The notes: generated by a model from the sequence alone, not told the origin. A DNA stretch of 64,000 nt from an uncultured Campylobacterales bacterium (GCA_903885085.1 CAISHH010000154.1:1694-65693), one strand, 5' to 3'; numbered from the stretch's first letter, positions 2,851 through 42,836 are shown. Made by a program: numbers and translations.

Positions 2851-3282
2851 ATGCAAGAACATCAAGCTATTAAAACAAATCAGTATCTAGAGATCCCGGA
2901 GATAGAGACAATCCTTGAAGGCGTTGAATACATTATCATGGCAGCACCTTCGCCTGATCATTTTAGTGCAACGCCCGTACATGTAACGATATTTTTAAAC
3001 ACGCAAGAGCGTTTTTCACAAGAGATAAAAGAGATGATCTTTGATAAATTTTGCCAAGACTATAAAATAACAGCCTCAGCGGAAGTGATGAGCCAGCTTA
3101 TGCCCGTGGGCTTTGCAACCACATCTTTAGGTTCTGCGATGCCGATGCTTTTAGTCAAAACACAAGATCAAAATGCCATCCCTCATGTACCCTTACATGT
3201 AATTGATTTTCTTGCTGCTTCAGATCAGTTTGAAGAGGTTGTAGAAAAATCGCTCTCTGGCTGGACTTACGTTCGAGAATAG
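2851..3282 (+). CDS. Hypothetical protein
   Basis: 143-aa ORF 12 nt after the previous stop, with a strong RBS (AAGGAG, 7-nt spacer). No recognisable motif. Confidence 0.6.
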   Translation: MQEHQAIKTNQYLEIPEIETILEGVEYIIMAAPSPDHFSATPVHVTIFLNTQERFSQEIKEMIFDKFCQDYKITASAEVMSQLMPVGFATTSLGSAMPMLLVKTQDQNAIPHVPLHVIDFLAASDQFEEVVEKSLSGWTYVRE

Positions 3283-4589
3283 AGTTCTTCTATCTCGGCA
3301 ACACTCTTAGCAATCCCACAAGAGAGGTTTTCATAACCCTCTTTTATGACTAAAATATCATCTTCTATTCTCACCGCTATGCCTCTGTATTTCTGCGGTA
3401 AATCCACATCATCCAAAGGCAAATACAATCCTGGCTCTATTGTCATCACCATCCCAGCTTGAAGCGGTAGTTCTTTCCCTTTTTTGTCTTTATAAGGACA
3501 GGGATCATGCACATCGATGCCCATCCAATGCCCGATGCCATGAGGAAAATAGCGTTTGTCTTTTTCCTCTTTGATCAGTTCTTTGACATCGCCTTTAAGA
3601 ATCCCAAGCGCAACCATTCCCTCGCACAAAGACTCTCTAGCCATCATCTGAAGATCAGTTCGTAAAACGCCCTCTTTAATCGCCTCTATGACTTTGAGTT
3701 CAGTTTGTAAAACAAGCTCATAAATCTCTTTTTGTGCTTCGCTAAACTTACCATTCACAGGAATCGTTCTTGTGATATCACTCGCATACATCTCAAACTC
3801 GCATCCCGCGTCTATAAGGATAAGTTCACCCTCTTTAAGAATCTCAGAGTTGTTAATGTAATGCAGAGTATTTCCATTGTCACCGCCTGCGATTATGGTT
3901 GTATATGCATCGCTGTAAGCGCCGTTTTTCTTAAACTCATATTCATACACTGCTTGAAGTTCATACTCAAACATTCCACTCTTTTGCATACTCATCACTT
4001 TATGATGTGCCTCTTTTGTAATAGACAAAGCTTTTTTGATAAGTTCTATCTCTACGGGTGTTTTTATAGCTCTCATACTCTGAGTAATTTTCTTTACATG
4101 TAAGAGCTTCATTGAACTTTTTTTTATGAAATCCTTTACACCCTCTGGGCACTTCGCATGTAAGAGTTTTTTCTCTTCGCTAAAGAGATCAAGATAAACT
4201 CTTTTTTTACTTGGTAAAATCTTTTTTAATTTCTTTTCAAAACGCTCAGAAGTACAAACTGTATCGACGTCAAAGCGCTCTTTTGCACCTTCTGCTCCTA
4301 AACGCTTTCCAGTCCAAAGTTCTAAACTCTTATCTTTTTTTTGAACAAATAAAATCTCTTTAACAGACTTTTCTCCCTTTAGTAAAACCAAAATAGCATT
4401 GTCCTCTTTAAAACCAGTGAGATAATAAAAATCGCTATCTTGTCTGTAGGGATACTCAGTATCATTTGAGCGTGTTTTTTGAGTTGCGCTAAAAAGCAAA
4501 GCGACACTGCTCTTTTTCATTTGAACTAAAAAATCTTCTCGTCTACTTTTGTAGATCTGCTCATCCATTATTGAAGCTCTTTTTGACAT
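3267..4589 (-). CDS. pepP: Xaa-Pro aminopeptidase (M24B)
   Basis: 440 aa with an N-terminal creatinase/AMP_N-like domain. M24 metal-ligand motifs are present: IDAGCEFEMYASDITRT, HGIGHWMGIDVHD, TIEPGLY, VRIEDD. Confidence 0.88.
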   Translation of the reverse strand: MSKRASIMDEQIYKSRREDFLVQMKKSSVALLFSATQKTRSNDTEYPYRQDSDFYYLTGFKEDNAILVLLKGEKSVKEILFVQKKDKSLELWTGKRLGAEGAKERFDVDTVCTSERFEKKLKKILPSKKRVYLDLFSEEKKLLHAKCPEGVKDFIKKSSMKLLHVKKITQSMRAIKTPVEIELIKKALSITKEAHHKVMSMQKSGMFEYELQAVYEYEFKKNGAYSDAYTTIIAGGDNGNTLHYINNSEILKEGELILIDAGCEFEMYASDITRTIPVNGKFSEAQKEIYELVLQTELKVIEAIKEGVLRTDLQMMARESLCEGMVALGILKGDVKELIKEEKDKRYFPHGIGHWMGIDVHDPCPYKDKKGKELPLQAGMVMTIEPGLYLPLDDVDLPQKYRGIAVRIEDDILVIKEGYENLSCGIAKSVAEIEELYSRT

Positions 4590-5188
4590 TGATTATTGAG
4601 CCACATATTTGTTTGTTGCATGACATCATTCAGCGCTGCTTGAAGAGCTTTTACTCCCCCTTGTGCATCGAGCGAAGAGGAAGGAACTTTTTTCTCTATG
4701 GTTGTTGCGTAGAGAAGTTTTGAATTGTCGTTTTCAAGAAGTGCAAAATGGATTTTGACTGTTACATACGAGCTTTTCATATCTTCACTAAAATGCTGAA
4801 TAAACTCTCCAACACTATATTCAAGGACATAATCTGGCTTTGCAGACGATTTTGCTAATAATACATCTTTAAATATTTTTGTATCCCGTACACTGCTGAC
4901 AAGTGATACTTCTAATATTTTGTATGGTGCTGCTTCCCAGTTTGAAAGAGCATAGCTTTCAACATTCAGATCTCCTCTTTGGTAGTAGATAGATCGTCCC
5001 ATAATCGGATCATAACTCACAATATTTTTCAATTGCAACACATCATTTTTGCAAGACGGGGCATTGTAATCTTTCACAACCGATGTAACTTGCAATCTGT
5101 ACTGCATGCTTGGAGGAACTTTTGTCTGCAAAGAACATCCAGATATTATGAACACGACCAAACTATATAAAAATATTTTATTCATCAT
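4568..5188 (-). CDS. Lipoprotein, ABC-transport auxiliary component (PqiC/YmbA-like)
   Basis: Lipobox at the N-terminus (LVVFIISGC). It is the last gene of the permease/ATPase/MCE operon, the usual position of DUF330-type lipoproteins. The family call rests on context and size. Confidence 0.55.
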   Translation of the reverse strand: MMNKIFLYSLVVFIISGCSLQTKVPPSMQYRLQVTSVVKDYNAPSCKNDVLQLKNIVSYDPIMGRSIYYQRGDLNVESYALSNWEAAPYKILEVSLVSSVRDTKIFKDVLLAKSSAKPDYVLEYSVGEFIQHFSEDMKSSYVTVKIHFALLENDNSKLLYATTIEKKVPSSSLDAQGGVKALQAALNDVMQQTNMWLNNQCQKELQ

Positions 5189-6884: not shown

Positions 6885-8009
6885 CTAGATACCCAAATTT
6901 GTAAAGATGATAGAAAAAACTGCATCACAAACGATAACCGCAAAAATAGATTCAACAACACTTTTGGTTGTATTGATCCCAATGCTTTGCGTGTCATCTT
7001 TCACTAGCATTCCTCGAAATATACCGATAGAAGCGATCAAAAAGGCAAAAAAAGGCCCTTTAGCAATGCCCACAAAGAAATGTTTTGCCGCTACTACTTC
7101 ATTTAAACGGTCTAAAAAAAGTGAAGTTGAGATACCAAGGTCAAGGTTTGCGACAAGCATACCACCTAAAAGTCCAGTGACATCTGAAACAAAAATCAAT
7201 AACGGCATCATCAACATAAGTGCGATAATGCGAGGAATCACCAAAAATACAATAGGATCAAAACCCATAGTACGCATAGCATCAAGTTCCTCTGTTATCT
7301 TCATAGCGCCTATCTGAGCGGTAAAAGAGGAACCGCTTCTTCCTGCAATAACGATTGCGGTAAGTAAGGGCGCAAGCTCACGAAAGATAGAGATTCCGAG
7401 CATATCAACTATAAAAATATTTGCGCCATAGATTTTTAACTGTACAGAGGATTGATATGCCATAACGACACCAACAAGAAAACTCGTCAGAGCAACGATA
7501 CCAAATGCTTTGATCGCATTTTCATTGATCTCAAAAAAAATCTCTTTATATCGAAGTGATCTTAAATGTTTAAAAAGATAAAAAAATCCATAAGAGATTT
7601 GCCCGAAGAAAGAGAGAAATTCAACAAATTTTTTCATCCTTAAAACAGCATCTTCACCCAGTTTTTCGATAAATAAAGGTTGTTTATAAACAAATTCTTC
7701 TAAATCAAGATGTAAAACATGAATTGTTTTGAGGGTACTTATCACTTGCTCATTCTTACATGTAAGAGAAAAAGCAAGTTGCTTTTCAGCAAATGTCTGT
7801 TCCAACTTATTGATATAGATCGCACCTGCCGTATCTATAGAAGTGATATCATCAAGATTTAAAAAGAGTTCAGATCCATTTCGAAGCTTTGACTCAAGCT
7901 CTTTTTCAAAGCTCACTAGAGTATAAAGATTTATTTCACCGGCGAGACTAAAGTCTAACCGATTGTTAGCAAATGAAGAAGTAAAGGAGAGATTTTTTTT
8001 AGATAACAT
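6885..8009 (-). CDS. MlaE-family ABC permease with N-terminal STAS-like domain
   Basis: The C-terminal ~260 aa match MlaE permeases (FRELAPLLTAIVIAGRSGSSFTAQIGAMKITEELDAMRTMGFDP). The N-terminal ~110 aa is soluble and STAS-like. Confidence 0.85.
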   Translation of the reverse strand: MLSKKNLSFTSSFANNRLDFSLAGEINLYTLVSFEKELESKLRNGSELFLNLDDITSIDTAGAIYINKLEQTFAEKQLAFSLTCKNEQVISTLKTIHVLHLDLEEFVYKQPLFIEKLGEDAVLRMKKFVEFLSFFGQISYGFFYLFKHLRSLRYKEIFFEINENAIKAFGIVALTSFLVGVVMAYQSSVQLKIYGANIFIVDMLGISIFRELAPLLTAIVIAGRSGSSFTAQIGAMKITEELDAMRTMGFDPIVFLVIPRIIALMLMMPLLIFVSDVTGLLGGMLVANLDLGISTSLFLDRLNEVVAAKHFFVGIAKGPFFAFLIASIGIFRGMLVKDDTQSIGINTTKSVVESIFAVIVCDAVFSIIFTNLGI

Positions 8010-8020
8010 ACAAAAAAATT

Positions 8021-8518
8021 TTAAAAATCTCTCTCGAGCAATTTGTTGACTTTGAGTATCGTAATGATTCTATCTGATTGTTTTCCAACACCATCGATCA
8101 TAGTTTCGCTATCTTGCATTGTATCGGGCGCTGGTCCGATATCTGATTTTCTGATACGAAGGGCTTCAGTCAGACGATCTATCACAAATCCAGCGACCTC
8201 ATTTCCATCTTTCATAACAATAAAACGGGTTTCATCTGTATGTTTTTTTGTTTGGAGTCCGAATTTTAATCTCAAATCTATAAGAGGGATTACAGAACCG
8301 CGAAGGTTAAAAACACCAAGTACATACGCAGGTGTTTGAGGAACCCTTGTCCAAGAAATAGGTTTGATAATCTCTTGAATATTTAATATAGGCACACTAT
8401 ACTCTTCATCACCTATAATAAATCCAACTAATTGAACAGCATCTTCTAGCTGACTTACAACACCGCGATTTTGCTGTTCACTCTGCTTACTGATAATATT
8501 TTGTAGTTTATCACTCAT
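8021..8518 (-). CDS. cheW: Chemotaxis coupling protein CheW
   Basis: 165 aa CheW domain (EYSVPILNIQEIIKP...VLGVFNLRGSVIPLIDLR). Directly follows cheA. Confidence 0.92.
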   Translation of the reverse strand: MSDKLQNIISKQSEQQNRGVVSQLEDAVQLVGFIIGDEEYSVPILNIQEIIKPISWTRVPQTPAYVLGVFNLRGSVIPLIDLRLKFGLQTKKHTDETRFIVMKDGNEVAGFVIDRLTEALRIRKSDIGPAPDTMQDSETMIDGVGKQSDRIITILKVNKLLERDF

Positions 8519-10902
8519 TATGCTAACTCCGCTTTAAACTTGATATTTCTTTGTACTACACTTGCTAGATAATCAGATGAATAAGGTTTCGTAATATATT
8601 CTACCATTCCAGACTCAACCCCTCGCATACGGTCAGATTTACTTGTACGTGACGTAACTGCTATAAGAGGAAGATTTTTATATTTATTGTATTTTTTGAT
8701 CTCGCCTGCTAATGTATATCCATCCATTCTTGGCATCTCAATATCTATGAGCATCGCATCAAAATGTGTATCACCCTGCTTGAGGATATTTAACGCTTCT
8801 TGACCATCTACGGCTTCAGTAAGAGTTATTCCCATTGGTTCTAAAGCTTTTCTCATAATCGTTCTATCTGTTTTTGAATCATCAACAATCATGACATTAT
8901 AATCACTCGCTTTTGTTTTTTCTTTGGATACAGCCGCTGATTTTGACTCGATCATTGGTTTTGCTTTTACCCCTTTTGCCATCTGCATAAGTGCAGCAAC
9001 ATCGACAATAAGAGTCACACCGCCATCTCCACGGATAGTCGCTCCCGCGATCCCTTCCATTCCTTTGAGATATTCTCCAAGAGATTTAATAACGATCTCT
9101 TCTTGCCCTACAAGTGAATCGACGATAAGACCAAGTTTGCTCTCAGCCAGACCAAGCACAACCACATACGCATGTTCAGCCGCATCTATGATACGCTCAA
9201 CTTCAAAAATATCGCCAATATGAACAAGAGAGAGCACATCATTTCTTAGTCTCATAACAGAGCGGTTATCGACTGTGTAGATCTCATCTTTAGAGATACG
9301 AACAGTTTCTAAAACAGACGCCAGAGGAATAGCATAATACTCCTCTTGCACACCAACTAGAAGTGCTTGAATAATAGCAAGGGTCAAAGGAATCTTCAAT
9401 TTAATCGAAGTTCCACGTCCTACTTCACTGTCGATATCGATGATACCATTGAGTTTTTCAATATTTGTTTTAACAACGTCCATACCGACACCGCGTCCAG
9501 AGACACTTGTAACTTGCGCCGCTGTTGAGAACCCTGGTCTAAAGATGAGAGCAAAGGCTTCTTTATCAGTCATTGCATCAGCTTCTTTTTCTGTAATAAC
9601 CCCTTTTTCAAGAGACTTATTTTTAAGCATAACAGGATCTAGACCTTTTCCATCATCATCAATTTGCACGACAATGTGGTTTCCTTCATTGTAAGCTTTT
9701 AGAATGATAGTACCTGTTTCAGATTTACCAAGGGCAATACGATCAGTAATAGACTCAATCCCATGGTCACAAGAGTTACGGATGATGTGAACTAGCGGAT
9801 CGCCAATCTCTTCAACAATCGACTTATCAAGTTCAGTTTCTTCTCCAAAAATCTCTAGATCTATCTTTTTATTTAGCTCGCGTGAAAGATCACGGATCAT
9901 ACGTGGGAATTTATTGAAAACTTTCCCTATCGGAAGCATTCTTGTTTTCATAACCGCGATTTGAAGGTCAGTTGTAACCAAAGAAACAATTGAGACAACT
10001 TGGTTGAGTTCCTCTAAGAACTCTTCCCCTTCGTAACGCTCTTCAACATCTACATTGATCTTGATAAGACGATTCTTTGCAAGTACAAGTTCGCCGATAA
10101 GGTTCATGAGATGGTCAAGTCTTTTGACATCCACACGAATAGTCTGTTCAACTGTTGTTGCGTTCCCTTTTACAGGAGCGGCCGCTTTTGCATCTTCAGA
10201 GTGTTCTTCAGTTTGTCTTTTTGGAGGCATCGGTGGTTTTACTACCACTGCATTTGTTTGTGGAGCCGGCTCTTTTTTTGGCTCTTCTTCATCACCTTGT
10301 GGCATCTGTGGAACGGCTTCGCCTGCAGCTTGCTTAGCTTTTCTTTTTTTCTGATCTTCTACTTGTCTTTGTGCTAGAAGTCTTTCTATCTCAGCTTCAA
10401 CCTCATCATCACTCATATTGTCATAATCAGGTTCTTCTTCCTCAAGAGATTCTTCTAACTCTTCTTCCTCGGTTTCTTCTTCTATACTTTCTTCTTTTGG
10501 AATTTCTTCTACCGAAGTGCCATTGGATTTTGCGTCAAGTCTCACAACACACATAGAAACATCTACACCAGCATCTGCACCCGTATCACGGATCGTATTT
10601 AAAAGTTCTTTCATGAGATCAATAGATTCTAAAACAACATCCATAACATCAGGCGTTAGTAATAAATCTCCATGTCTTGCTTTATTTAAGATATCTTCCA
10701 TATGGTGAGTAAGATGGGTCAAAACATCAAAATTTAAAAATGATGAAGCGCCTTTTACTGTATGTGCAACACGAAAAATACGATTGAGAAGTTCTAAATC
10801 CTCAGGATCTGTCTCCAACAACACAAGGTCTTGATCCAATTGTTCTAAAAGCTCGAAAGATTCAATTAAAAAATCTTGTAATATCTCTTGAAATTCATCC
10901 AT
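8518..10902 (-). CDS. cheA: Chemotaxis histidine kinase CheA with C-terminal receiver domain (CheAY type)
   Basis: Hpt domain (AHTVKGASSF), dimerisation and HATPase regions (DHGIE..., DDGKGLD, GRGVGMDVV) and a CheW-like domain. A C-terminal REC domain follows (VMIVDDS...DIEMPRMDG...TSR). A long acidic/basic low-complexity linker sits where P2 normally is. Confidence 0.95.
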   Translation of the reverse strand: MDEFQEILQDFLIESFELLEQLDQDLVLLETDPEDLELLNRIFRVAHTVKGASSFLNFDVLTHLTHHMEDILNKARHGDLLLTPDVMDVVLESIDLMKELLNTIRDTGADAGVDVSMCVVRLDAKSNGTSVEEIPKEESIEEETEEEELEESLEEEEPDYDNMSDDEVEAEIERLLAQRQVEDQKKRKAKQAAGEAVPQMPQGDEEEPKKEPAPQTNAVVVKPPMPPKRQTEEHSEDAKAAAPVKGNATTVEQTIRVDVKRLDHLMNLIGELVLAKNRLIKINVDVEERYEGEEFLEELNQVVSIVSLVTTDLQIAVMKTRMLPIGKVFNKFPRMIRDLSRELNKKIDLEIFGEETELDKSIVEEIGDPLVHIIRNSCDHGIESITDRIALGKSETGTIILKAYNEGNHIVVQIDDDGKGLDPVMLKNKSLEKGVITEKEADAMTDKEAFALIFRPGFSTAAQVTSVSGRGVGMDVVKTNIEKLNGIIDIDSEVGRGTSIKLKIPLTLAIIQALLVGVQEEYYAIPLASVLETVRISKDEIYTVDNRSVMRLRNDVLSLVHIGDIFEVERIIDAAEHAYVVVLGLAESKLGLIVDSLVGQEEIVIKSLGEYLKGMEGIAGATIRGDGGVTLIVDVAALMQMAKGVKAKPMIESKSAAVSKEKTKASDYNVMIVDDSKTDRTIMRKALEPMGITLTEAVDGQEALNILKQGDTHFDAMLIDIEMPRMDGYTLAGEIKKYNKYKNLPLIAVTSRTSKSDRMRGVESGMVEYITKPYSSDYLASVVQRNIKFKAELA

Positions 10903-10913
10903 AAACTACTCTC

Positions 10914-11855
10914 CTACTTCATATGTGCACGAACAACGCGTGCGACTTCACCGTAAAACAAATTAGCGTCAAACTTAACCAAGTAGGCTTCAGCACCAGC
11001 ATCTTTGCCACGCATTTCACTAAAATGATCACTAATTGATGAGTTAAAAACTATCGGAATATTTTTATATCTCCCATCTTCTTTAACATTTGCTGCAAAG
11101 TGAAAGCCATCCATCAAAGGCATCTCAATATCTGAGATAATGAGTTTAAGATGATTTGTTATTCCCTCTTCGTACATCGCATAGATATCATCAAGTTTTT
11201 CAAGCCCATCTTGTCCATCACTTGCTTCAACAACATCAAAGCCCATCTTTTCAAGAGCATCTCTTACTATTTTTCTAGCTGTTGAGCTGTCATCAAGCAA
11301 CAATACAAGTCCTGCAAAAGTATCAAGATCTTGAGGAATATCTCCAGTATTTGGTTTATACAGTCCCAAATCTTGGACAACAGCTTCCAAGTCAAGAATC
11401 AAAAGTACCGCATCATCTTCGATACGTGTCACTCCTGTTATCTTACTGCCATCAAATCCCTCTCCTCCGGAAACAAAAGAAGCAGGCTCAATATCTTTCC
11501 AGTTTATACGGCGAATTCGTCTCGCTTCATGAACAATAAAGCCGATAAGAACATTATTAAATTCAGCAATAATGACACGCGCATTTTTTCCAGCATCTTC
11601 AGGAACATTCACACCCATCCAACTAGCTAAATTCACAACAGGAATGACAACACCACGAAGATCAAAAATACCTTCTATAAATTCCGGAACTCCCGGAAGT
11701 TCTGTTAGAGAGGGAACACGAATAATTTCCCGAACTTTAGCGACATTGACACCGTAAATCCCCTCATACACTTCATCATCTTCTTGTTTGAAGATACGAA
11801 AGTCCACAAGTTCCATCTCATTACTGCCAACTTTTAATGTTGCGTTTTCTTTCAT
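10914..11855 (-). CDS. cheV: Chemotaxis protein CheV (CheW-like + REC)
   Basis: N-terminal CheW-like domain (YGVNVAKVREII...DLRGVVIPVVNL) plus a C-terminal receiver (LLLDDSSTARK...SDIEMPLMDG). Confidence 0.92.
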   Translation of the reverse strand: MKENATLKVGSNEMELVDFRIFKQEDDEVYEGIYGVNVAKVREIIRVPSLTELPGVPEFIEGIFDLRGVVIPVVNLASWMGVNVPEDAGKNARVIIAEFNNVLIGFIVHEARRIRRINWKDIEPASFVSGGEGFDGSKITGVTRIEDDAVLLILDLEAVVQDLGLYKPNTGDIPQDLDTFAGLVLLLDDSSTARKIVRDALEKMGFDVVEASDGQDGLEKLDDIYAMYEEGITNHLKLIISDIEMPLMDGFHFAANVKEDGRYKNIPIVFNSSISDHFSEMRGKDAGAEAYLVKFDANLFYGEVARVVRAHMK

Positions 11856-12598
11856 TCACCTAACTCCTTAGAAGCATCGACCTCTAATAATAGCTCTTCT
11901 TGCGGGGATTGTACAATAAAATATCTTTGATTACAAGCAAAAGCAGCCAAATTAATATAGGTAAAATCGTCCACGCCAAAGCTTCTGTTTTGATGAAAAT
12001 GTCCCTCTATAAAATAATCACAGCTATTAGAAAATCTTTTATCTAGACGTGTTGTAATGTATCTTTGAAAACCTTCAAAATTATTACAATCTTCTTTTTT
12101 TTGAAGATACGTATCGAGTTTTTTTAGTATAAAATGATTCCCAAAAAGGTCAATGTATTTCAAACAAGTAAGGATAAATCGGTTTCGTATCAAAGATGTG
12201 TATATTTTATAACCCAAGTCCTCGCCAAAATCACCATGCGCGAGTAAAATCTTCTTATCATTATATTTACATGAGAGAGGCTGAGAGGCAAGCGGATAGA
12301 TCTTAATATTTTCAAATACACCTTCCAAACAAAAATCATGATTTCCTTCAAGATAAATCACTTCTATTTTCTGCGCTATTGAGTTTAGTAAATCTATCAT
12401 TTTTTGGTTACCATCTAAAGTATAAGGGATAGGTCCAAAAAGAGTATCAAAGATATCACCCATCAAAATAAGTTGTGAGGGTTTTAAAACACCAGCATCT
12501 ATCTCTTCTAAAAGAGCCTTTAATTCTGGTCGATGTGGCGAATAATGAGCATCTGAAATAACAAATGCTCCCTCTTTGAGAAGAAAACTATGGGACAT
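11852..12598 (-). CDS. Metallophosphoesterase, UDP-2,3-diacylglucosamine diphosphatase (LpxH)-like
   Basis: Ordered calcineurin-type motifs as in LpxH: ISDAHY, LMGDIFD, GNHDF, AHGD, GHFH. The size (248 aa) also fits. Confidence 0.6.
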   Translation of the reverse strand: MSHSFLLKEGAFVISDAHYSPHRPELKALLEEIDAGVLKPSQLILMGDIFDTLFGPIPYTLDGNQKMIDLLNSIAQKIEVIYLEGNHDFCLEGVFENIKIYPLASQPLSCKYNDKKILLAHGDFGEDLGYKIYTSLIRNRFILTCLKYIDLFGNHFILKKLDTYLQKKEDCNNFEGFQRYITTRLDKRFSNSCDYFIEGHFHQNRSFGVDDFTYINLAAFACNQRYFIVQSPQEELLLEVDASKELGE

Positions 12599-16490: not shown

Positions 16491-16744
16491 AAATGAAAAA
16501 TATACTACTCGCGTTTACACTTTTAGGCTCTTTGACATCGCTTCTTGGGCAAAGTGCTTTTGAAACACAAGAGAAAAAAACAGCAGTTTCTGCGCTCAAA
16601 GATGCAAAGCATTCACAGCAAAAAAAGGTACAAAAAACGACTCAGCCAGTGATGAAAAAATATGATTCCTACGAGGCTAAAGAGGTTCAAAGCTATAAAA
16701 ATAATAACTCAGGACAGATGCAAGTCAAAATTCCGACGCATTAA
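16487..16744 (+). CDS. Small secreted protein, hypothetical
   Basis: 85 aa with a clear signal peptide (MKMKNILLAFTLLGSLTSLLGQSA) and a Lys/Gln-rich mature part. ATGA overlap with the upstream gene. Confidence 0.55.
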   Translation: MKMKNILLAFTLLGSLTSLLGQSAFETQEKKTAVSALKDAKHSQQKKVQKTTQPVMKKYDSYEAKEVQSYKNNNSGQMQVKIPTH

Positions 16745-30316: not shown

Positions 30317-31522
30317 ATGAAAAATAGGTTTTATTTTGACACCAAACCAAACGAAAATATTCTTGAATTGATTAAAGCTGAAAGAGAAGAGATAGGCTTT
30401 TATGAACTTTGCCATAACGATGTAAGTGAATATGAAGCATACGCAAAGAGCATAGATGCGCAAGACATCGTCGTTGTCGGTATTGGTGGCAGTGCACTTG
30501 GAACCTCTGCAATTTACAAATTTTTAAAATATACCAACCATTTTTCAAAAAAACTCCATGTTATAGAAACAACAGACCCTCTTGTTATCACTGATGAAAT
30601 GGAACATATCGATCTTCAAAATGCTCATTTTCTTATTATCAGTAAATCGGGAACGACGGTTGAGACGATCTCTGTTTATAAATATATCGCTTCAATCATA
30701 GAAATCACTTCTAAAAACTGTACCATTATTACCGATGAGGGCTCACTTCTTGAAAAGCACGCAATTGACAGTGATATCAAAGTGTTTCATATTCCTCATA
30801 ATGTCGGCGGAAGATTTTCAGTTTTAAGTGCCGTGGGACTTGTACCTTTAGCTATGATTGGCATCGATATCAGGTCTCTTTTAGATGGCGCAAAAAAGAT
30901 CTATAACTCATTTTTCAATCAAGAGGGTTATGATACTTCACTTTTGAAAAAAGCAACTTATTATGCTCAAACTGCAAATACTTATAATATTAATTGTTTA
31001 TTTAGCTACTCAGAAGTTTTTCGGGAGTTCAACGCATGGTATGTGCAACTTTGGGGAGAAAGCCTTGGGAAAAAACAGATCCATTCACAGTTACATGTAG
31101 GCCTAACTCCAGTCGGACTTATCGGGCCCACAGATCAGCACTCTTTTTTACAACTTATCGTTGATGGAAAACGTGATAAAAGTGTGACTGTAATCAAGAT
31201 AAATAATTTTGAAAACGCAATGGAAGTGCCAAATAACTCATTGAAACATTTAGAGTCTTTGGATGTTTTGAATGGATATAAATTTTCAGAGATTATCAAT
31301 ATGCAAGCTGATTCTATTGTCGAATCTCTTCTCTCACTTGAACATATCCCTCTCGATGTTATCGAAATCTCTCAAATCAATGCCCATTCTATCGGTGAAC
31401 TTATCTACTATTATGAGCTTCTAGCAGCGCTTGTTGGAAAAATGCTTGATATCAACACTTATGACCAACCTGGCGTAGAGATGGGCAAGATCATCCTCAA
31501 AGAGAAACTAAACAAAAAATAA
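30317..31522 (+). CDS. pgi: Glucose-6-phosphate isomerase (short type)
   Basis: VVGIGGSALG, ISKSGTTVET, GGRFSVLSAVGL, QLWGESLGK, TDQHSFLQL. Confidence 0.88.
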   Translation: MKNRFYFDTKPNENILELIKAEREEIGFYELCHNDVSEYEAYAKSIDAQDIVVVGIGGSALGTSAIYKFLKYTNHFSKKLHVIETTDPLVITDEMEHIDLQNAHFLIISKSGTTVETISVYKYIASIIEITSKNCTIITDEGSLLEKHAIDSDIKVFHIPHNVGGRFSVLSAVGLVPLAMIGIDIRSLLDGAKKIYNSFFNQEGYDTSLLKKATYYAQTANTYNINCLFSYSEVFREFNAWYVQLWGESLGKKQIHSQLHVGLTPVGLIGPTDQHSFLQLIVDGKRDKSVTVIKINNFENAMEVPNNSLKHLESLDVLNGYKFSEIINMQADSIVESLLSLEHIPLDVIEISQINAHSIGELIYYYELLAALVGKMLDINTYDQPGVEMGKIILKEKLNKK

Positions 31523-33570: not shown

Positions 33571-34770
33571 GTGAAATTAATAGCAAAAGTTTTTTTGATA
33601 TGCGCATATACTCTTAATCTCTCTGCTCAAACTCAGCTTATAGATATTTTCAAAGATGGGGTGGTGTCAGGACAAATAGACTCTACATACATACAGCAAA
33701 ATTTTCAAAATGCGACAGACACGAACAACTATGCAACCGCGCTTGGCGGAAAACTAAAATATGAAACAGCTTCATTTGAAGGATTCAATACGGCGGTTGC
33801 TTTTTATACCTCGCAAGATATAAATTTTGCCACAGGAGATCGTTCTAAAGGGAAACAAAATAGTGAGCTCTCTTCAGACAAAGGAAGTTATACTCAGGCG
33901 GCTGAAGCTTATATCAATTATGGATATGAAGGTTTCAATCTCCGCGCAGGACGTCAAGTTATTGACACGCCTTTAGCAGATAGCGATTCAATCCGTATCA
34001 TACAAAATACGTTTGAAGCCTACATCGCAACTTATACAAATGATGCATTAACGTTTCAAGCTGGAAAACTTGTAAGCTGGCAAGGTTATGATGCGGGATT
34101 GGAAAATGGTTTTACACCAGTCGGTAAACAAGGCGCTTGGCTAGGCTCTGCCTCTTTTTCAAACAACCTTTTTGATGCAAGTGCATGGTTTTATAATGTA
34201 ACTGATTTTTCAAATCTCTTTTACACAGATGCAGGTACGCACATACACGTCAACAATGATGTACTCTTACATGTAAGGGCGCAATATATCAACGAACAAG
34301 AGTTAAAACAAAGTACAATAAATGCACAACTTTATGGAGTTAAAAGTACAGTCGAATTTGAGGGATTTGCTATAAGTACTGCTTATAACAAAGCTTTAGT
34401 AGGTAAAGATAAAACGAGTTTCAGCGGTTTTGGCGGCGGAGCCTTATATACAAATATGGATACAATGATTTTAAAAGAAATCGCTACAGACCGCGATGCA
34501 GAAGCTTTTGTTGGTGGAATCAGTTATACCTACGATAATATCAAACTCATTTACGCTTATGGAGATTTTCACGGTAGTGCAAATAGTTTAGGAGAAAAAG
34601 CGGATATCATTGAGCATAACATAGGTTTTGAATATAATATCAATAATGATTTGAAACTTTCTGCAATTTATGCAAAAGATATCGATAAGATTGACCCAAA
34701 TAATACACAAACCAATTGGGATAGGGTACAAATAAATATAGCATACAATTTTGGAGGCAAAAGCAAATGA
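33571..34770 (+). CDS. Outer-membrane porin (OprD-like beta-barrel)
   Basis: GTG at 33571 is preceded by AAGGA (6-nt spacer) and gives the signal peptide MKLIAKVFLICAYTLNLSAQ. The track start at 33529 (TTG) overlaps the Fur box. The sequence has alternating beta-strand character and ends in an aromatic-rich strand (INIAYNFGG). Confidence 0.6.
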   Translation: MKLIAKVFLICAYTLNLSAQTQLIDIFKDGVVSGQIDSTYIQQNFQNATDTNNYATALGGKLKYETASFEGFNTAVAFYTSQDINFATGDRSKGKQNSELSSDKGSYTQAAEAYINYGYEGFNLRAGRQVIDTPLADSDSIRIIQNTFEAYIATYTNDALTFQAGKLVSWQGYDAGLENGFTPVGKQGAWLGSASFSNNLFDASAWFYNVTDFSNLFYTDAGTHIHVNNDVLLHVRAQYINEQELKQSTINAQLYGVKSTVEFEGFAISTAYNKALVGKDKTSFSGFGGGALYTNMDTMILKEIATDRDAEAFVGGISYTYDNIKLIYAYGDFHGSANSLGEKADIIEHNIGFEYNINNDLKLSAIYAKDIDKIDPNNTQTNWDRVQINIAYNFGGKSK

Positions 34771-34991: not shown

Positions 34992-37099
34992 AAAAAATAA
35001 AAATAGCTCTTGTCGGACAACCCAATGTGGGCAAAAGTATGCTCATTAACTCCATCTCAAATGCTCACTTACATGTAGGCAATTTTACGGGTGTTACAGT
35101 TGAAAAGAGTGAAGTGCTTTTCAACTATGAAGGCTATAAAGTCAACATTGTCGATCTTCCAGGGACTTATATGCTGAGTGAATACTCCATCGAAGAGAAA
35201 GTCACTACGAACTTTTTATGTGAAGAAGAGTATGACATCATCGTCAATGTTGTAGATTCCACTAACTTGCAGAGAAATCTTCAGCTCACCTCAGAACTTC
35301 TAAACATGAATAAAAAGCTCGTCATCGCGCTCAACATGAGCGATGAAGCAAAAAAAGAGGGAATTCATATAAATACAAAACTCTTTTCAGAGCTTTTAGG
35401 TGTAAAAACTATTGCTGTTTCTGCGGCTACAAAAGAGGGAATCAAAACATTGCTTGACGCAATTATTCAAACTTTTGAAAGCCCTCTTGATGAATCTAAA
35501 CTTATCTTCAGCGAGCCGATAGAAGAAGAGATTGAAAATATCATCACTTGTTTTACAAATCACCATTTTAAATCTCATAACTCTTTTCGACGTATTGCAA
35601 TCAATCTTTTACAAAATAAAGAAAAAACATACAAAAAGATGCATGATGATCCTATTTGGATAGAGCTTCAGCCCATCTTACATGAAGCAAACAAACACTT
35701 TGCATTGCACCATAGAACAGAAGATATTCAAGATATCTTTGCAGAGGAGTATATGGCATTTAATAAAGGTATTGTCGCAGAAGTACTGACACAGGATAAT
35801 TTAGTCCTTCAAGAGATAAGCACAACAGATAAAATAGATAAAATCCTTATTCATCCCGTTCTTGGAATCCCGATTTTTCTCTTTTTGATGTGGGGACTTT
35901 TCCAACTAACCTTTACACTTGGTTCTATCCCGATGGTATGGATTGATGAATTTTTTAAATGGTTTGGAACCGTTGTTGGAGCTACTATTCCTAATGATGA
36001 AGTAAAATCACTCATAGTTGATGGTCTTATTTCCGGTGTTGGCGCAGTCGTAATGTTTGTACCAAATATTGTCATTTTATTTATCGGTATTGCTCTTTTA
36101 GAATCTACGGGTTATATGAGTCGTGTTGCTTTCTTACTTGATGGTTTTTTCCACCGTTTTGGCTTACATGGGCAATCTTTTATCCCTCTAGTCACGGGTT
36201 TTGGATGTTCTATTCCAGCTTATATGAGTGCTAGAATCTTAAAAAATGACCGTGACAGACTTCTCACTCTTTTTATTATCGGGTTTATGAGTTGTGGTGC
36301 AAGACTTCCTGTATATGTTCTTTTTGCTGGAGCTTTCTTTGGTGCCAATAGTGCTGGAAATGTTTTATTTGCCATCTATATTAGCGGTGCAATTATCGGA
36401 CTTATAGCGGCAAAAGTATTAAAGATGACAGCATTTAAAGGCAGAGATGAACCTTTTGTTATGGAGATGCCAAAATATCGTCTTCCATCTTTTTCACTTA
36501 TCTGGCATACAGTTAAGACAAAGACGTACATGTACATCAAAAAGGCAGGAACTTTTATCGCCGCAGCATCAATGCTTGTGTGGTTTTTAAGTAATTATCC
36601 GCATAATGCTCAAATGATTGCAGCTCAAAATGCAAAGATAGATCTCGTAACTAATGCAGAAGAAAAAAAGGCATTGCAAACCTCAATGAGTGAAAATCTT
36701 CTTGAACAAAGTTTTTTAGGTCGCATTGGTAAGTTTATAGAACCTGTATTTCAACCTATCGGAATGGACTGGAAAATGGCTGTTGCTTTGCAAACTGGAC
36801 TTGCTGCTAAAGAGGTTGTCGTCTCTACCCTTGGTGTTTTATATTCCGTAGGAGCCGATGCGGATGAGCATAATGACGGATTAATGCAAAGGTTACATGC
36901 AAATATCTCTTTTGCTTCAGCGGTAGCATTTATCGTCATCATTATGACTTATCTGCCATGTTTTGCTGCAACCACTGTTTTTACAAGAGAAGCTGGCGGC
37001 ATTAAATACGGAGTTTATCTCTTTTTACTCACGACAATAGTCGCATATTCTTTGGCATTTTTAGCATATAAAAGTGTTCTTCTTTTAGGCATTTCGTAG
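34988..37099 (+). CDS. feoB: Ferrous iron transporter FeoB
   Basis: N-terminal G domain (GQPNVGKS, DLPGTY, NMSD) plus a polytopic permease with gate motifs. Confidence 0.95.
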   Translation: MKKIKIALVGQPNVGKSMLINSISNAHLHVGNFTGVTVEKSEVLFNYEGYKVNIVDLPGTYMLSEYSIEEKVTTNFLCEEEYDIIVNVVDSTNLQRNLQLTSELLNMNKKLVIALNMSDEAKKEGIHINTKLFSELLGVKTIAVSAATKEGIKTLLDAIIQTFESPLDESKLIFSEPIEEEIENIITCFTNHHFKSHNSFRRIAINLLQNKEKTYKKMHDDPIWIELQPILHEANKHFALHHRTEDIQDIFAEEYMAFNKGIVAEVLTQDNLVLQEISTTDKIDKILIHPVLGIPIFLFLMWGLFQLTFTLGSIPMVWIDEFFKWFGTVVGATIPNDEVKSLIVDGLISGVGAVVMFVPNIVILFIGIALLESTGYMSRVAFLLDGFFHRFGLHGQSFIPLVTGFGCSIPAYMSARILKNDRDRLLTLFIIGFMSCGARLPVYVLFAGAFFGANSAGNVLFAIYISGAIIGLIAAKVLKMTAFKGRDEPFVMEMPKYRLPSFSLIWHTVKTKTYMYIKKAGTFIAAASMLVWFLSNYPHNAQMIAAQNAKIDLVTNAEEKKALQTSMSENLLEQSFLGRIGKFIEPVFQPIGMDWKMAVALQTGLAAKEVVVSTLGVLYSVGADADEHNDGLMQRLHANISFASAVAFIVIIMTYLPCFAATTVFTREAGGIKYGVYLFLLTTIVAYSLAFLAYKSVLLLGIS

Positions 37100-37126: not shown

Positions 37127-37144
37127 TGCGCAAAAAGGACAGAG

Positions 37145-37699: not shown

Positions 37700-37717
37700 A
37701 TCAACTAAAGGCTTACT

Positions 37718-39850
37718 ATGAAAAATGTCAGTATCAGCAGAAAGATTCAGATACCCCTAATTATATCTATCCTCATCGGATTTGTGATTATTGCGATCAA
37801 CTATTTTTATTCTATCAACAATATGAAAGATGATATATATAAGAAAGAAAACAGTTCACTGCGTTCGCTCTATACTGATCTTTTTAATAGTAAAAAAGAT
37901 ATTGGCTTAACAAATGCTATTAACATCGCCGAAAACTACTATGCGATAAGAGCTTTAAAAGAAAACGACAGAACTATCGCAATGGACGGTCTTAGTTCTC
38001 TTTCCAAAACATTCAAAGACAATACTGATTTTAATAATGTGAAGATCCATATTCATGATGCCCATATCAAAAGTTTTCTAAGATCTTGGAGTCCCCAAAA
38101 GTATGGTGATGATCTCAGTGGCTTTAGAAAAAGTATAGTTCAAGTAAAAGAAACCAACAAACCTCTTGTGACTATAGAAGTAGGAAAAGCAGGACTAGTT
38201 CTTAGAGGTATCTCGCCTGTCATGGTATCAGGAGCTTATCTGGGCTCAGTGGAATTTATTCAAGGTTTAAACTCTATTATCAGTTCTGCAAAAAAAAGTG
38301 ACAATGTTGATATCATTGTTCTTCTTGATAATAAATATTTATCTACTGCAACAGATCTTAAAGATGCTCCTAAAGTAAATGATTTTACTCTTGCAGTGAA
38401 AAAAGAAGCTATAAATAGTTCCTTTTTTGATGAGCTTTCTGCTGTAGATCCTAAAGATGTTACATCACTTCAAAAATCAAAAAACTATTTTATCTCTTCT
38501 GTGCCTATCAAAGATTTTTCAAACAATGTTGTAGGCTATGCAATGGTTGGTAAACTTAAAACTGAAGTTGAAGCAACGATTCAAGATTCAGAGAGATCAT
38601 TACTAAGACAAATATTTATCGTCGCTTTGATAAATATTTTCATTGTATTATTTTTACTTTTTATCATCAAAAAAGCTGTTATTAATCCTATCGTCAATCT
38701 TGATAAAGTGGCAAAAGAGCTTACTATAGGAGATGCAGATCTTTCTAGGAGACTTCCGATTGTCTCACATGATGAACTAGGGAGTGCAAGTCAAAGCTTT
38801 AATGCCTTCTTGGACATCGTAGAGGGAATCTCGAATGAAGCCAAACGTGAAGCACTCAGAGCACAAGAAATATCTCAACAGATAGCAAAGGCTCAAGAAA
38901 AAAATGAACTAAATCTTAATCTTTCTCATGAGATGATCTCAGGTTCAGTCTCAAATGCAACAAATCTTCAAACAAGTATGAAAGATAATATTCAAAATGT
39001 AGACCAAGTCAATAAACTCAATGATGAAACGGGAGATATTATCACCAAAGTCACAAAGTCAACTGATGAGATTATCGATAATATTGCCCATATTACAGAG
39101 ATGATCAGTGATTCCAAAAACTCTGCAGATCAGCTTAATACAAATGTTGCAGAGATTTTTAATGTTATCACGCTCATCAAAGATATCTCAGATCAAACAA
39201 ATCTTCTAGCACTCAATGCTGCCATAGAAGCCGCGCGTGCTGGTGAACACGGAAGAGGATTTGCCGTTGTTGCTGATGAAGTAAGAAAACTTGCAGAACG
39301 CACGCAAAAAGCAACAAGTGAAGTGGAAGCCAATATCAGCGTCTTAAAACAAAACTCGATCGCCATGACAGAAAATAGTGAGAGAATCGATCTCTCTGCA
39401 TCAGAGTCTCAAAGCAAACTCGACGCATTTAAAATCACGCTCCACGAAATGATTCGAAATGTAAATAAAATCAAAGATGATAGTCAAAAAATAGGGTATG
39501 AACTCTTTGCAAATATGGCAAAACTCGATCACATGATCTTTAAATCTACTTCTTACTCAACAGTATTAGATGGAAAAGTAGATAAAAATCTTAATGATCA
39601 CCTTACATGTAATCTTGGAAAATGGTATAACGCGGAGGGCAGAGAGTTGTTTTCACATAGTTCTGCATTTACTACTATAGAAAAGCCGCATGCAACCATT
39701 CATGGAAATATCAAAAAAGCAATGGAGCTTCTCGAAAGAGGTAATGCAACGAATACAGAAATTGTAAATTTATTTAAAGAATCAGAATTAGCATCACAGG
39801 AGCTGTTTGGATATCTTGACTCAATGGTCAAAGATGCTAAAAAGGGCTAG
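37718..39850 (+). CDS. Methyl-accepting chemotaxis protein with Cache-type periplasmic domain and C-terminal CZB zinc-binding domain
   Basis: TM1, a ~265-aa periplasmic region ([21 protein letters not shown]...) and TM2, then HAMP. The MCP core follows ([34 protein letters not shown]). The C-terminal CZB pattern is DHMIFK...[11 protein letters not shown]...PHATIHG. Confidence 0.88.
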
Positions 39851-40035: not shown

Positions 40036-40037
40036 AA

Positions 40038-40832: not shown

Positions 40833-42458
40833 ATGCAAGAAGAAACACAAATTCAGGAAACTGAAGCACCAACTATAACTTTTGAATCATTCGGATTCAA
40901 AAAAGATTTACTAAGAGCTATCGATCACGCTGGCTTTAAAGTACCAAGCCCTATCCAAGCAGAAGCTATACCTTTAGTTATGCAAGGTCGTGATATTGTT
41001 GGACAAGCACACACAGGTACAGGTAAAACTGCAGCATTTGGCTTACCAGCATTAAATATGATGGATATGAAATCAGGCGTTGAAATTCTTGTTATCACTC
41101 CGACTCGCGAACTTGCAACTCAGGTAAGTGATGAACTTTTCAAATACGGACGTAACCTAGGCGCAAACACTGTAACAATATTTGGTGGTAGTTCATACAA
41201 CCGTCAACTTGACCTTATCAAACGTGGCGCACAAGTTGTTGTTGCTACACCAGGTCGTTTACTTGACCTTTTAAAACGCAATATGCTTACCAACTTCGCT
41301 CCAAAAATCGTTGTTTTGGATGAAGCGGATGAGATGCTAGATATGGGATTTTTGGATGATATCAATGAAATCTTCACATATCTTCCAACAAGTCGTCAAA
41401 CATTACTATTCTCAGCAACTATGCCTGCACCAATTAAAGTTCTTGCAGAGCGTATTTTACAAAACCCTGCGTTTGTTTCTATCACTAAAGGTGAAACAAC
41501 AAACAAAGATATTACTCAAGAGTATTATGTTATCGAAGAGAGCGAGCGTGATGCTGCAATCATCCGTTTGATGGAATCTGAAGACATGGATAAAGCGATC
41601 GTATTTTGTCGTACAAAACGCGAAGTTGATCGTCTTGCAAATGTTCTTTCAGCTGCAGGATTTATCGCAAACGGTCTTCATGGAGATATGGAACAACGTC
41701 AACGTGAAACTGTTATCAAAGCTGTAAAAGCTGGAAATGTACAAGTTCTTGTAGCAACAGACGTTGCGGCGCGTGGTATACATGTAAATGATATCACTCA
41801 CGTATTTAACTACCATATTCCTTTTGATCCTGAGAGTTATGTTCACCGTATCGGGAGAACTGGCCGTGCTGGTAAAGAGGGAAAAGCGATCACTTTACTA
41901 ACTCCTTTAGAGTTTAAAGAATTGCAACGTATCAAAGCTAAAGTTGGAACAACTATGGCTCACGCTTATATTCCAAGTAAAAATGATATGAAAAAATCAA
42001 CTATCGATACTTTGGTTGCTTCAATCGAAGAACAACATATTTTTGATGAAGCGCATATGATTTTAGACAAACTTAAACAAGATATTGATGAAGAAACAAT
42101 GCTTTTCAAAATGATCTCTATGTTATTAGAAAAACAATCAATCCAAGGGCCAAACAACATCGGTATTCCTGCTGATAGACTTGAAGGAATTCTTGCTCGT
42201 ATCAATAACCGTGGAAACGACAGAGGTGGCGATAGAAATCGTGGCGGCGGACAACGTCGTGGCGGATACAGAGGCAACAACAGTAATAGTAGCCGTCCAA
42301 GCGGAAGCGGTGACAGAAGCCGTTCTGATAGAGACAGAAACAGTGCTGGCGGAGATCGTCCAAGTGGAAGTCGTCCAGACAGAGCTCCACGTGGAGATCG
42401 TCCTGCAGGTGACAGAAACCGTCCAAGCGGCGATAGAAATCGTGGACCAAGAGCGTAA
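40833..42458 (+). CDS. DEAD-box ATP-dependent RNA helicase with Gly/Asp/Arg-rich C-terminal tail
   Basis: Q motif (FESFGF...PSPIQ), AHTGTGKT, PTRELA, DEAD (VLDEADEM), SAT, ARGIH, HRIGRTGRAG. The tail has repeated GDR/RGG units. ATG 40833 is preferred to the track GTG at 40809, but the start is uncertain. Confidence 0.92.
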   Translation: MQEETQIQETEAPTITFESFGFKKDLLRAIDHAGFKVPSPIQAEAIPLVMQGRDIVGQAHTGTGKTAAFGLPALNMMDMKSGVEILVITPTRELATQVSDELFKYGRNLGANTVTIFGGSSYNRQLDLIKRGAQVVVATPGRLLDLLKRNMLTNFAPKIVVLDEADEMLDMGFLDDINEIFTYLPTSRQTLLFSATMPAPIKVLAERILQNPAFVSITKGETTNKDITQEYYVIEESERDAAIIRLMESEDMDKAIVFCRTKREVDRLANVLSAAGFIANGLHGDMEQRQRETVIKAVKAGNVQVLVATDVAARGIHVNDITHVFNYHIPFDPESYVHRIGRTGRAGKEGKAITLLTPLEFKELQRIKAKVGTTMAHAYIPSKNDMKKSTIDTLVASIEEQHIFDEAHMILDKLKQDIDEETMLFKMISMLLEKQSIQGPNNIGIPADRLEGILARINNRGNDRGGDRNRGGGQRRGGYRGNNSNSSRPSGSGDRSRSDRDRNSAGGDRPSGSRPDRAPRGDRPAGDRNRPSGDRNRGPRA

Positions 42459-42461
42459 GCT

Positions 42462-42836
42462 ATGAAAATCTACGAGGATGACGACTTTTTTATCGAGAGT
42501 GAAAAAAGTGAGATTCCTTGGCTGAAGATCTTTACAAAAATAGAATACAAAGAGCTAAGTGAGCTTCCAAAGCCGCTTCGACTCAAACTCTTCGAACTCT
42601 ACGATATCGTAGAGCTAGAGATGCTTTTCTACTTCAAACCACACAAAATCAATATGGCTTCTTTTGCAAATATCCTCCCGCGTGTACACTTACATGTAAT
42701 GGCAAGATATCAAAATGACAGTTATTTTCCAAATCCAATGTGGGGAGAAAAACAGCGCGAAGCGAAACTGGAACTTCCAGAATTTGAACTGTTTTATGCA
42801 AAACTACAAAAAACTCTTGAAGGATTTAATTCTTAA
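42462..42836 (+). CDS. HIT-family protein
   Basis: 124 aa with the histidine triad in LPRVHLHVMAR. Confidence 0.7.
   Translation: MKIYEDDDFFIESEKSEIPWLKIFTKIEYKELSELPKPLRLKLFELYDIVELEMLFYFKPHKINMASFANILPRVHLHVMARYQNDSYFPNPMWGEKQREAKLELPEFELFYAKLQKTLEGFNS

Follow-up and report, generated by a model that had tools for sequence, protein, structure and literature searches.

The question raised by a 64,000-nucleotide stretch of DNA from an uncultured Campylobacterales bacterium (GCA_903885085.1 CAISHH010000154.1:1694-65693; hereafter the window) is why a short palindrome, TTACATGTAA, should recur so often within genes of unrelated function. The original prediction, made from the sequence alone, was that the DNA word is kept and not the protein, its behaviour resembling that of HIP1, the highly iterated palindrome (HIP) of cyanobacteria, or of a DNA uptake sequence. 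We are confident that the word is a HIP-type element selected at the DNA level. GroEL, CheA and MurI place the window in the uncultured Sulfurimonadaceae (sulfur-oxidising Campylobacterota); its species is present in several ENA and JGI metagenome assemblies, and the word is also found in parts of that species' genome outside the window.

All 11 predicted matches to TTACATGTAA are present, with the start positions correct except for one (given as 26457 for 26447, with its 12-mer start given as 26456 for 26446). The predicted chance level of about 0.2 copies is also reproduced, since 100 dinucleotide-preserving shuffles average 0.18 copies and never exceed 2. Four of the 11 copies carry the full 12-mer CTTACATGTAAG, and the half-words CTTACATG and CATGTAAG have 14 and 12 matches (26 in total, where about 25 had been counted by eye), mostly as portions of full sites. 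When every k-mer is scored without bias against an order-3 Markov model, this word family ranks first at both k = 8 and k = 10, and the 8-mer TACATGTA, with 19 copies where ~0.4-0.5 are expected, is the most over-represented 8-mer in the window. The true unit is thus an 8-mer core, TACATGTA, with soft flanks extending to 12 bp, rather than the 10-mer.

Two codon-aware nulls (300 shuffles each) show that the excess does not follow from the proteins encoded. When synonymous codons are shuffled gene by gene, leaving the proteins unchanged, the mean is 1.43 10-mers (maximum 5; 11 observed) and 3.55 8-mers (maximum 8; 19 observed), and permuting codons yields means of 0.06 and 1.78 respectively. 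Chance, composition and codon usage are therefore ruled out as the source, with none of the dinucleotide, order-3 Markov, synonymous-codon or codon-permutation nulls reproducing the observed counts. Because the codon-aware nulls both fail, codon choice and amino acid sequences must each have been bent towards the word.

CheA orthologues on syntenic contigs provide a ladder of relatedness along which the word can be followed. Lineages with 92, 86, 86 and 85% CheA identity to the window carry 12, 9, 14 and 10 copies per ~22 kb, all in one dialect, whereas Sulfurimonas paralvinellae (80% identity) has none in 22 kb and another relative at 80% has a single copy in 16 kb. The on/off boundary is sharp and falls between 85% and 80% CheA identity. 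Pooling the five motif-positive lineages (clade 1) gives 64 copies in 152 kb against 1.3 expected, a density of 0.42 per kb and an observed/expected (O/E) ratio of ~48; the motif-free relatives together have 7 copies in 490 kb, where 5.6 are expected. As a negative control, the GroEL-anchored matches listed, mostly from distant phyla, contribute 4 chance copies in ~1.2 Mb.

Eighty MurI-anchored metagenome contigs reveal a second motif-rich group, clade 2 (L115, L117, L154 and L135), which has the same core within CTC..GAG flanks (20 copies vs 0.41 expected). The 10-mer CTACATGTAG is the most over-represented 10-mer of this clade, with 19 copies in 30 kb against ~0.03 expected. Five lineages and a second clade rule out a species-level fluke. 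In the MurI tree clades 1 and 2 are separate, with many motif-free lineages between them, and this single-gene neighbour-joining tree suggests either two origins or a transfer between the clades. A mobile reader or methyltransferase may have entered the Sulfurimonadaceae at least twice, or crossed between clades, each time rewriting hundreds of codons into its palindrome with slightly different flank preferences; we regard this extension as doubtful. If true, it would describe a self-propagating DNA 'watermarking' system operating across phyla, of which HIP1 would be the cyanobacterial case.

One clade 1 lineage, L232 (ERZ23486256 scaffold_15), has 42% G+C compared with 37%, yet maintains 9 copies of this AT-rich word per 22 kb; the sites it has lost are mostly GC-richer variants such as TGCATGCA and GACATGCA.

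Conservation of individual sites was examined in the five clade 1 lineages, which share 73-82% nucleotide identity. Motif sites are identical in 50-100% of pairwise comparisons, against 10-26% for background 8-mers, and all 20 ordered lineage pairs differ from background at P<0.035, the best being L231/L233 (7/7 vs 0.13 background; P = 7e-7). All five lineages agree at three of ten site columns, compared with 1.85% of background 8-mers, and outgroups have unrelated sequence at the conserved positions. An earlier conservation test on very close relatives only was underpowered, which the CheA ladder resolved. Sites also decay, and the window has lost at least three that its sisters keep (4155, 12268 and 17379).

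How the sites arose is evident from the proteins. MurI has L-T-C-K in the window's clade and L-[K/Q/E]-[N/D]-K in 37 relatives (LKDK to LTCK, for example), and at another MurI position clade 2 alone has S-T-C-R where A-T-[F/L]-K is found elsewhere. Similarly, MlaE has SLTCK where outgroups have STVLK or QIVCE, a small ORF (open reading frame) has FFTCK twice in place of TIRTK or FIIEE, the M24 peptidase has LHV in place of a gap or FAQ, and the HIT protein has HLHV in place of HIHV. Some proteins already had a suitable peptide, as with LLTCK in an EAL protein and the Cys ligand of a CZB domain, and there the word came from codon choice alone. Protein alignments show no indels at the sites, which therefore arose by substitution. 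We have thus shown that the word was written into genes by substitutions, often at amino acid cost, and that purifying selection, or a restoring drive of equivalent effect, has since maintained individual sites. The prediction that the DNA word is what is kept is borne out by the failure of the codon-aware nulls, the proteins altered to fit, the conservation of sites and the flank dialects. A DNA-level signal can evidently override protein sequence at hundreds of sites, adding Cys and His codons, and this matters when substitutions and codon usage in these genomes are interpreted.

The intact and decayed copies in the window are as follows, compared site by site with the clade 1 lineages L231, L232, L233 and L235, and also with L085, L086 and L001-L004.

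514-521, core TACATGTA; the only intergenic copy in the window (aatTACATGTAcag).
2978-2985, core; in the 143-aa ORF at 2851-3282, read as V-H-V and common to L231 only.
3194-3201, core within the 10-mer TTACATGTAA; same ORF (2851-3282), L-H-V, with M-H-V in relatives.
4095-4102, core within the 10-mer; M24 aminopeptidase gene, L-H-V, identical in 5/5 clade 1 lineages and missing from outgroups.
4155-4162, CGCATGTA(AG), a probable decayed copy; sisters have an intact second site here, ~69 bp from the preceding one.
7757-7764, core within the 12-mer CTTACATGTAAG; mlaE, L-T-C-K, in 4/5 lineages, outgroups having STVLK/QIVCE.
12268-12275, TACATGAG, a decayed copy; site intact in L231, L232 and L233.
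16794-16801, core within the 10-mer; small ORF at 16741-17043, F-T-C-K, identical in 5/5 lineages.
16908-16915, core within the 10-mer; second copy in the small ORF (16741-17043), 114 bp from the first, F-T-C-K, identical in 5/5 lineages.
17379-17386, TATATGTA, a copy decayed by one transition; site intact in L231, L233 and L235.
24302-24309, core; EAL-GGDEF gene, L-T-C-R, relatives already having the peptide LL[TVI]C[KR].
26448-26455, core within the 12-mer; FGGY kinase gene, L-T-C-K, kept in L085 and L086.
27039-27046, core within the 10-mer; class II aldolase-like gene, L-H-V, kept in L085 and L086.
28528-28535, core within the 12-mer; murI, L-T-C-K, 37 relatives having L-[KQE..]-[ND]-K and no Cys.
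31092-31099, core; pgi, L-H-V, kept in L085 and L086.
34268-34275, core within the 12-mer; 413-aa ORF of unassigned family, L-H-V, TACATGCA in L086.
35070-35077, core; feoB, L-H-V, kept in L085 and L086.
36527-36534, core without the dialect flanks; feoB in the Y-M-Y frame, lost from L086.
39604-39611, core within the 10-mer; Cys codon of the CZB zinc-binding motif of a methyl-accepting chemotaxis protein (MCP), L-T-C-N-L-G-K-W.
41779-41786, core; DEAD-box helicase gene, I-H-V.
42691-42698, core within the 10-mer; HIT histidine motif, H-L-H-V, with H-I-H-V in relatives.
52636-52643, core; ackA in the Y-M-Y frame, the sole copy at 43-64 kb, also present in L001-L004.

The original placement of two copies on the CZB and HIT motifs is therefore right. 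The small ORF with two copies (85-100 aa, no Pfam match) adjoins thiF/surE and is kept in all five clade 1 lineages; its S. paralvinellae counterpart has unrelated residues at both F-T-C-K positions.

The core behaves in an all-or-none manner, exact copies numbering 19 against 0.37 expected while one-mismatch words (19 vs 20.9) and two-mismatch words (278 vs 305) are not enriched. Around it, dialect 1 (clade 1) has CT-core-AG flanks, with T at -1 in 77% and C at -2 in 64% of half-sites, and dialect 2 (clade 2) has CTC-core-GAG flanks, with C at -1 in 95%, T at -2 in 81% and C at -3 in 64%. These flanks are symmetric and palindrome-preserving, and information falls below 0.45 bits past position -3. 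A longer repeat or mobile element is ruled out, there being no flank information past 3 bp and no indels at the sites. Nor does the word resemble repetitive extragenic palindromic (REP) sequences or miniature inverted-repeat transposable elements (MITEs), which are imperfect, intergenic palindromes of at least 20 bp that transposition spreads, since it is only 8-14 bp long, ~95% intragenic, and made by substitution at constant length.

All 11 of the 10-mers lie inside ORFs, solely in the L-H-V or x-T-C-x frames, as originally described, and copies occur in ORFs of unrelated function on both strands. The same pattern holds across clade 1, where 61 of 64 copies are in ORFs and are read as x-H-V (32), x-T-C-x (28) or Y-M-Y (1); the usable frames are the two left open once the flanks create TAA or TAG in the third. 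We considered whether the signal might act in RNA or protein, with every transcript carrying UACAUGUA whatever the gene orientation and the word serving as a site for an RNA-binding protein or ribonuclease, or as a functional peptide. In favour, the direction of a gene is no argument against RNA when a palindrome belongs to neither strand in particular, some MazF toxins cleave at UACAU, and nearly all copies are intragenic; however, 61/64 is merely proportional to coding DNA (the three intergenic copies matching a 92-96% coding density), the symmetric flanks point to duplex DNA and a dimer, and a 4-5 bp A/U-rich stem is too weak to matter. A peptide role is excluded by the two unrelated peptides produced from the same word, and we find the RNA alternative scarcely credible.

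Listed one-mismatch relatives of the 10-mer are all real, and one at 36893 brings their total from 11 to 12. Seven differ in a flank base only and five inside the core, the latter all being transitions (three T>C). It had been speculated that two C>T/G>A relatives reflect deamination of a methylated cytosine. One of them, TTATATGTAA at 17378, is indeed a decayed copy whose site is intact in three sister lineages, but the C>T neighbours TATATGTA and TACATATA occur at expectation (2 vs 2.9). A deamination or very-short-patch repair signature is rejected for want of specific support, transition neighbours of the core being at expectation.

The inner hexamer of the word has an unusual status. There are 21 ACATGT sites in the window, as counted originally, but the assessment that this is about what composition predicts masks a strong depletion of the bare hexamer, because 19 of the 21 lie inside TACATGTA; CATG itself is depleted (148 observed vs 182-195 expected). 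In motif-free relatives ACATGT and GCATGC are at 0.34 and 0.31 of expectation, RCATGY being the most depleted class of CATG words. CATG is depleted across the whole family; the bare hexamer ACATGT is down 3-fold there and no less scarce in the motif-positive clades (2 vs ~23 in the window, L085 and L086 together; 2 vs ~8 in clade 2). Avoidance of the kind expected for a restriction target is thus seen for ACATGT outside the word and not for the word, which is ~50-fold enriched. RCATGY depletion is the usual footprint of restriction pressure and suggests that NspI/PciI/SphI-like pressure is widespread in the Sulfurimonadaceae. Since the word is centred on this avoided hexamer, the simplest inference is that it is protected in the clades that carry it, for example by methylation. 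A degenerate T-RCATGY-A was rejected as the true motif, its G/C variants being only ~3.7-fold enriched (which fits decay) and the exact word ~48-fold.

CATG density varies 5-fold among lineages (0.9-4.5 per kb in the motif-free loci L087-L164, L234 and L236). In L144 (FLOH01000061.1, 1-20723) ACATGT is over-represented (16 vs ~6), opposite to the family trend; a third dialect is ruled out here, as the flanks are random and the contig simply lacks ACATGT avoidance.

These observations bear on the possibility that an orphan DNA methyltransferase targets the word, acting in repair strand discrimination or epigenetic control, with copies accumulating through a repair-linked mutational ratchet (Elhai's model for HIP1) and no role in uptake. 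The word nests CATG and ACATGT, which are classic methyltransferase and restriction targets, the avoidance of RCATGY implies that such enzymes are probably common in the family, and matching methyltransferases accompany HIP1 and alternative HIPs (PMC4390886). However, a 12-14 bp specificity with lineage-specific flanks exceeds typical Type II methyltransferase sites, the scanned genes include no methyltransferase, transition neighbours of the core are not depleted, and near-miss words are not enriched, though a ratchet passing through intermediates might predict that they would be. On balance we consider this improbable.

Phage-like DNA also carries the word. A scan of IMG/VR for the dialect 2 14-mer returns mostly single chance matches, and three loci stand out: L223, with 5 copies in 7.4 kb and genes for primase, ParA/ParB and integrase; L190, with 4 copies in 13.9 kb and genes for large terminase, integrase, exonuclease VIII and a replication initiator; and L177, which also has an integrase gene. 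All three have host-like word density and G+C similar to that of clade 2, and the hosts of these temperate phage-like contigs are predicted from dialect and composition. The equivalent dialect 1 scans give mostly chance single matches, with L368 and L256 only suggestive. L368 (108-1660, dialect 1-like copies) and L190 (1155-2770, dialect 2) share a recombination module of an exonuclease VIII-like gene and its partner (28-61% identity), so related temperate phages may infect hosts of both dialects.

Carriage by phage-like contigs at host-like density, together with ~1 copy per 2.4 kb (a density like that of Chi), would suit a Chi-like 'self' signal that attenuates a helicase-nuclease (AddAB/RecBCD), stimulates recombinational repair and benefits any resident replicon including phages. 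Known Chi sites are asymmetric, strand-oriented and only few-fold enriched, and the word resembles them in being genome-wide, often intragenic and presumably read by a protein; it differs in being a perfect palindrome with symmetric flanks, ~50-fold enriched and patchily distributed, whereas AddAB-type enzymes would be expected family-wide. In transformation HIP1 behaves in a Chi-like way, according to Kamoku and Nielsen (10.1101/2024.09.10.611283). We judge a Chi-like role to be quite improbable.

The phage-like carriers would also fit a neutral process acting on all resident DNA, in which a context-specific mutation or repair bias (such as very-short-patch repair tied to a cytosine methyltransferase) converts near-misses into the word, and the lineage restriction would fit horizontal acquisition of a repair or methylase gene. 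Such a bias predicts new positions, whereas the same positions are kept across 73-82% identity; moreover the specificity spans 12-14 bp, the C>T neighbours are at expectation, and creating sites took several substitutions, some of them non-synonymous. We disfavour this reading as very improbable.

Gaps between copies are near-Poisson (coefficient of variation 1.09). There is an excess of close pairs (25% of gaps <250 bp vs 11% under Poisson), which is only suggestive because the lineages are not independent; pair spacings are 69, 114, 142 and 216 bp, several pairs are kept in all five lineages, and the excess may hint at cooperative binding. The pairs are:

16794/16908, 2978/3194 and 4095/4155 in the window.
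8487/8629 and 16758/16827 in L231.

Density is also uneven within the window, the first 43 kb having 18 copies of TACATGTA and the last 21 kb (43000-64000) a single one (52636); this word-poor stretch contains the ABC-F, MCP, GGDEF-EAL, pta-ackA and groESL genes.

Spacing and density of this kind are among the features favouring a binding site for a nucleoid-associated or chromosome-organising protein (such as a dimer resembling Noc, SlmA or MatP, or the factor behind the 10-90 kb periodicity reported for HIP1), whose density and placement would shape chromosome folding or segregation without any part in uptake. A symmetric site of 12-14 bp suits a dimeric helix-turn-helix-type protein, individual positions are conserved, site placement takes no account of gene function, frame or strand, and Xu et al. 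prefer this explanation for HIP1 (PMC5861425). The temperate phage-like carriers speak against it, as does a patchy occurrence in closely related lineages that core chromosome machinery would not be expected to show. Noc, SlmA and MatP sites are likewise 12-16 bp palindromes bound by dimers that mark the chromosome, but they number tens per genome and are conserved across whole families, whereas the word is patchy and, at ~420 sites per Mb, about ten-fold denser. A role in chromosome architecture is unlikely in our estimation, and it leads the rivals, followed by a methyl-mark for repair or regulation and then by a Chi-like attenuator.

Among described systems, the closest likeness is to HIP1, an octamer palindrome with 300-2700 copies per Mb, O/E of 55-228, extensions that are palindromic and lineage-specific, and sites for methyltransferases nested within it (PMC4390886), whose sites are conserved by selection (PMC5861425) and which enhances natural transformation in a way that depends on methylation (bioRxiv 10.1101/2024.09.10.611283; 10.64898/2026.06.24.733823). 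Using features drawn from Elhai 2015 (PMC4390886) and Xu et al. 2018 (PMC5861425), we find here a palindromic octamer that is enriched by tens of fold and dispersed as single copies, hundreds of them per Mb, with lineage-specific extensions that keep the palindrome and with conserved sites. At ~420 per Mb and O/E ~48 the word is similarly hyper-abundant in genes, some relatives are without the element, the core nests shorter restriction- and methylation-type palindromes, and its sites are conserved beyond background. It is an analogue of HIP1 and not a member: TACATGTA in Campylobacterota is a different and AT-rich sequence in another phylum from GCGATCGC in cyanobacteria, and does not have the nested GATC/CGATCG sites of DmtA/DmtC found in HIP1 proper. 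Further differences are that HIP1 is nearly phylum-wide and the word is limited to narrow clades, switching on or off sharply at their edges; that HIP1 one-offs are common and conserved, while one-mismatch variants are not enriched here; that the inner hexamer is otherwise avoided by the family; and that HIP1 has associated methyltransferases, none being recognised in the genes scanned here.

The predicted likeness to uptake sequences is also apparent, as dialects form around a constant core both in HIP1 extensions (PMC4390886) and in the DNA uptake sequences (DUS) of Neisseriaceae, which have a constant core and lineage-specific flanks (PMC3630211). Like DUS and the uptake signal sequences (USS) of Pasteurellaceae, the word is short, could reach hundreds to thousands of copies, occupies permissive frames in genes and is accommodated by the proteome, and transmission drive can explain its accumulation and conservation. 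Neisseria DUS often form inverted pairs in terminators, whereas the word is ~95% intragenic and in single copies, and uptake sequences are defined in part by preferential uptake through a dedicated (ComP-like) receptor in a naturally competent organism, whereas no competence gene is recognised in the annotated loci here. An uptake sequence would be expected to be scarce in recently acquired or mobile DNA; L223 and L190 carry the clade 2 dialect at host-like density, and the absence noted from the tRNA-linked island is correct but, as originally said, not significant (0 in 5.2 kb, which is too short). That island, a tyrosine-integrase element, follows a tRNA-Met gene at 58686-64000; among same-species strains L001 has no island at this tRNA-Met gene and L002 has a different integrase, and the island ORFs at 58811-60070 and 60743-61393 resemble genes of the temperate phage contig L190.

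Closer at hand, Campylobacter jejuni takes up only RAATTY-methylated DNA (PMC10046745). This CtsM-dependent mark belongs to the same phylum, is palindromic and tags self DNA for uptake by methylation, showing that a methyl-tag mechanism exists in Campylobacterota (PMC10046745). It differs from the word in being a degenerate 6-mer that is frequent by composition and not a 50-fold enriched 8-14-mer. We know of no description of genome-wide accumulation or site conservation for RAATTY.

Drawing on the parallels of HIP1 and of methylated RAATTY in uptake, we propose tentatively that the word is a self tag acting through uptake or recombination together with methylation. Its reader would recognise duplex DNA and is probably a sequence-specific protein of symmetric (dimeric) build, which is consistent with the symmetric flanks and with half-sites lying mostly within full sites, and the reader's gene would be limited to motif-positive clades. 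A clade-specific methyltransferase or reader would mark the word as 'own DNA', marked DNA would be favoured in uptake and/or recombination, and alleles carrying the word would in consequence spread and be kept. Methylation would also account for tolerance of a word built on the avoided ACATGT. This mechanism is somewhat less likely than its failure, and for the best explanation as a whole, blending the class of element with the mechanism, we would put the chances as even.

Several points weigh against this best explanation. Known uptake sequences are not palindromes, and an uptake drive does not specifically predict temperate phages with the word at host-like density. Pfam scans of ~58 window ORFs reveal no methyltransferase, restriction enzyme or nuclease, Vsr or competence gene, and the Pfam tables precomputed for the loci anchored on CheA and GroEL reveal no methyltransferase, restriction, Vsr or competence gene; the search for a determinant covered these ORFs and loci, and the MurI-anchored and viral loci were not domain-scanned. 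When ORFs were compared all-vs-all, those that the two motif-positive clades share and that 690 kb of motif-free DNA lacks proved to be phage genes only, Sulfurimonas competence is undocumented in the searchable literature, and the motif-positive DNA behind all counts amounts to ~0.2 Mb, not whole genomes.

It was suggested originally that no equivalent had been described in Campylobacterota, and full-text literature searches for the words and for HIP-like elements find no report; searches for the words themselves return no bacterial-genome context. HIP1 has been known for ~30 years and its function is unsettled, its near-universality in cyanobacteria leaving comparative genomics little contrast. 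An independent instance in another phylum supplies such contrasts in the on/off boundary (85% vs ~80% CheA identity, including the cultured S. paralvinellae), the two dialects and the phage-like carriers, and these make the determinant and its function directly testable and the HIP question tractable. With so sharp a difference between close relatives in the presence of the word, simple phyletic profiling could reveal the gene responsible. The word is also a ready marker of native versus foreign DNA in Sulfurimonadaceae metagenome bins.

Two further observations concern gene content. The motif-free L236 has a defence-type insert upstream of greA (1-4100), where other genes are found in clade 1, encoding DndB, a GIY-YIG nuclease and a HepT/nucleotidyltransferase toxin-antitoxin pair. 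The window itself is unusually rich in genes for cyclic di-GMP (c-di-GMP) turnover, with three GGDEF/EAL proteins, and in chemotaxis genes, with CheA, two CheW, a CheV-like protein and two MCPs. The c-di-GMP and chemotaxis stretches are:

14184-16490
23217-24989
48032-50167
8021-11855
37718-39850
45810-47426

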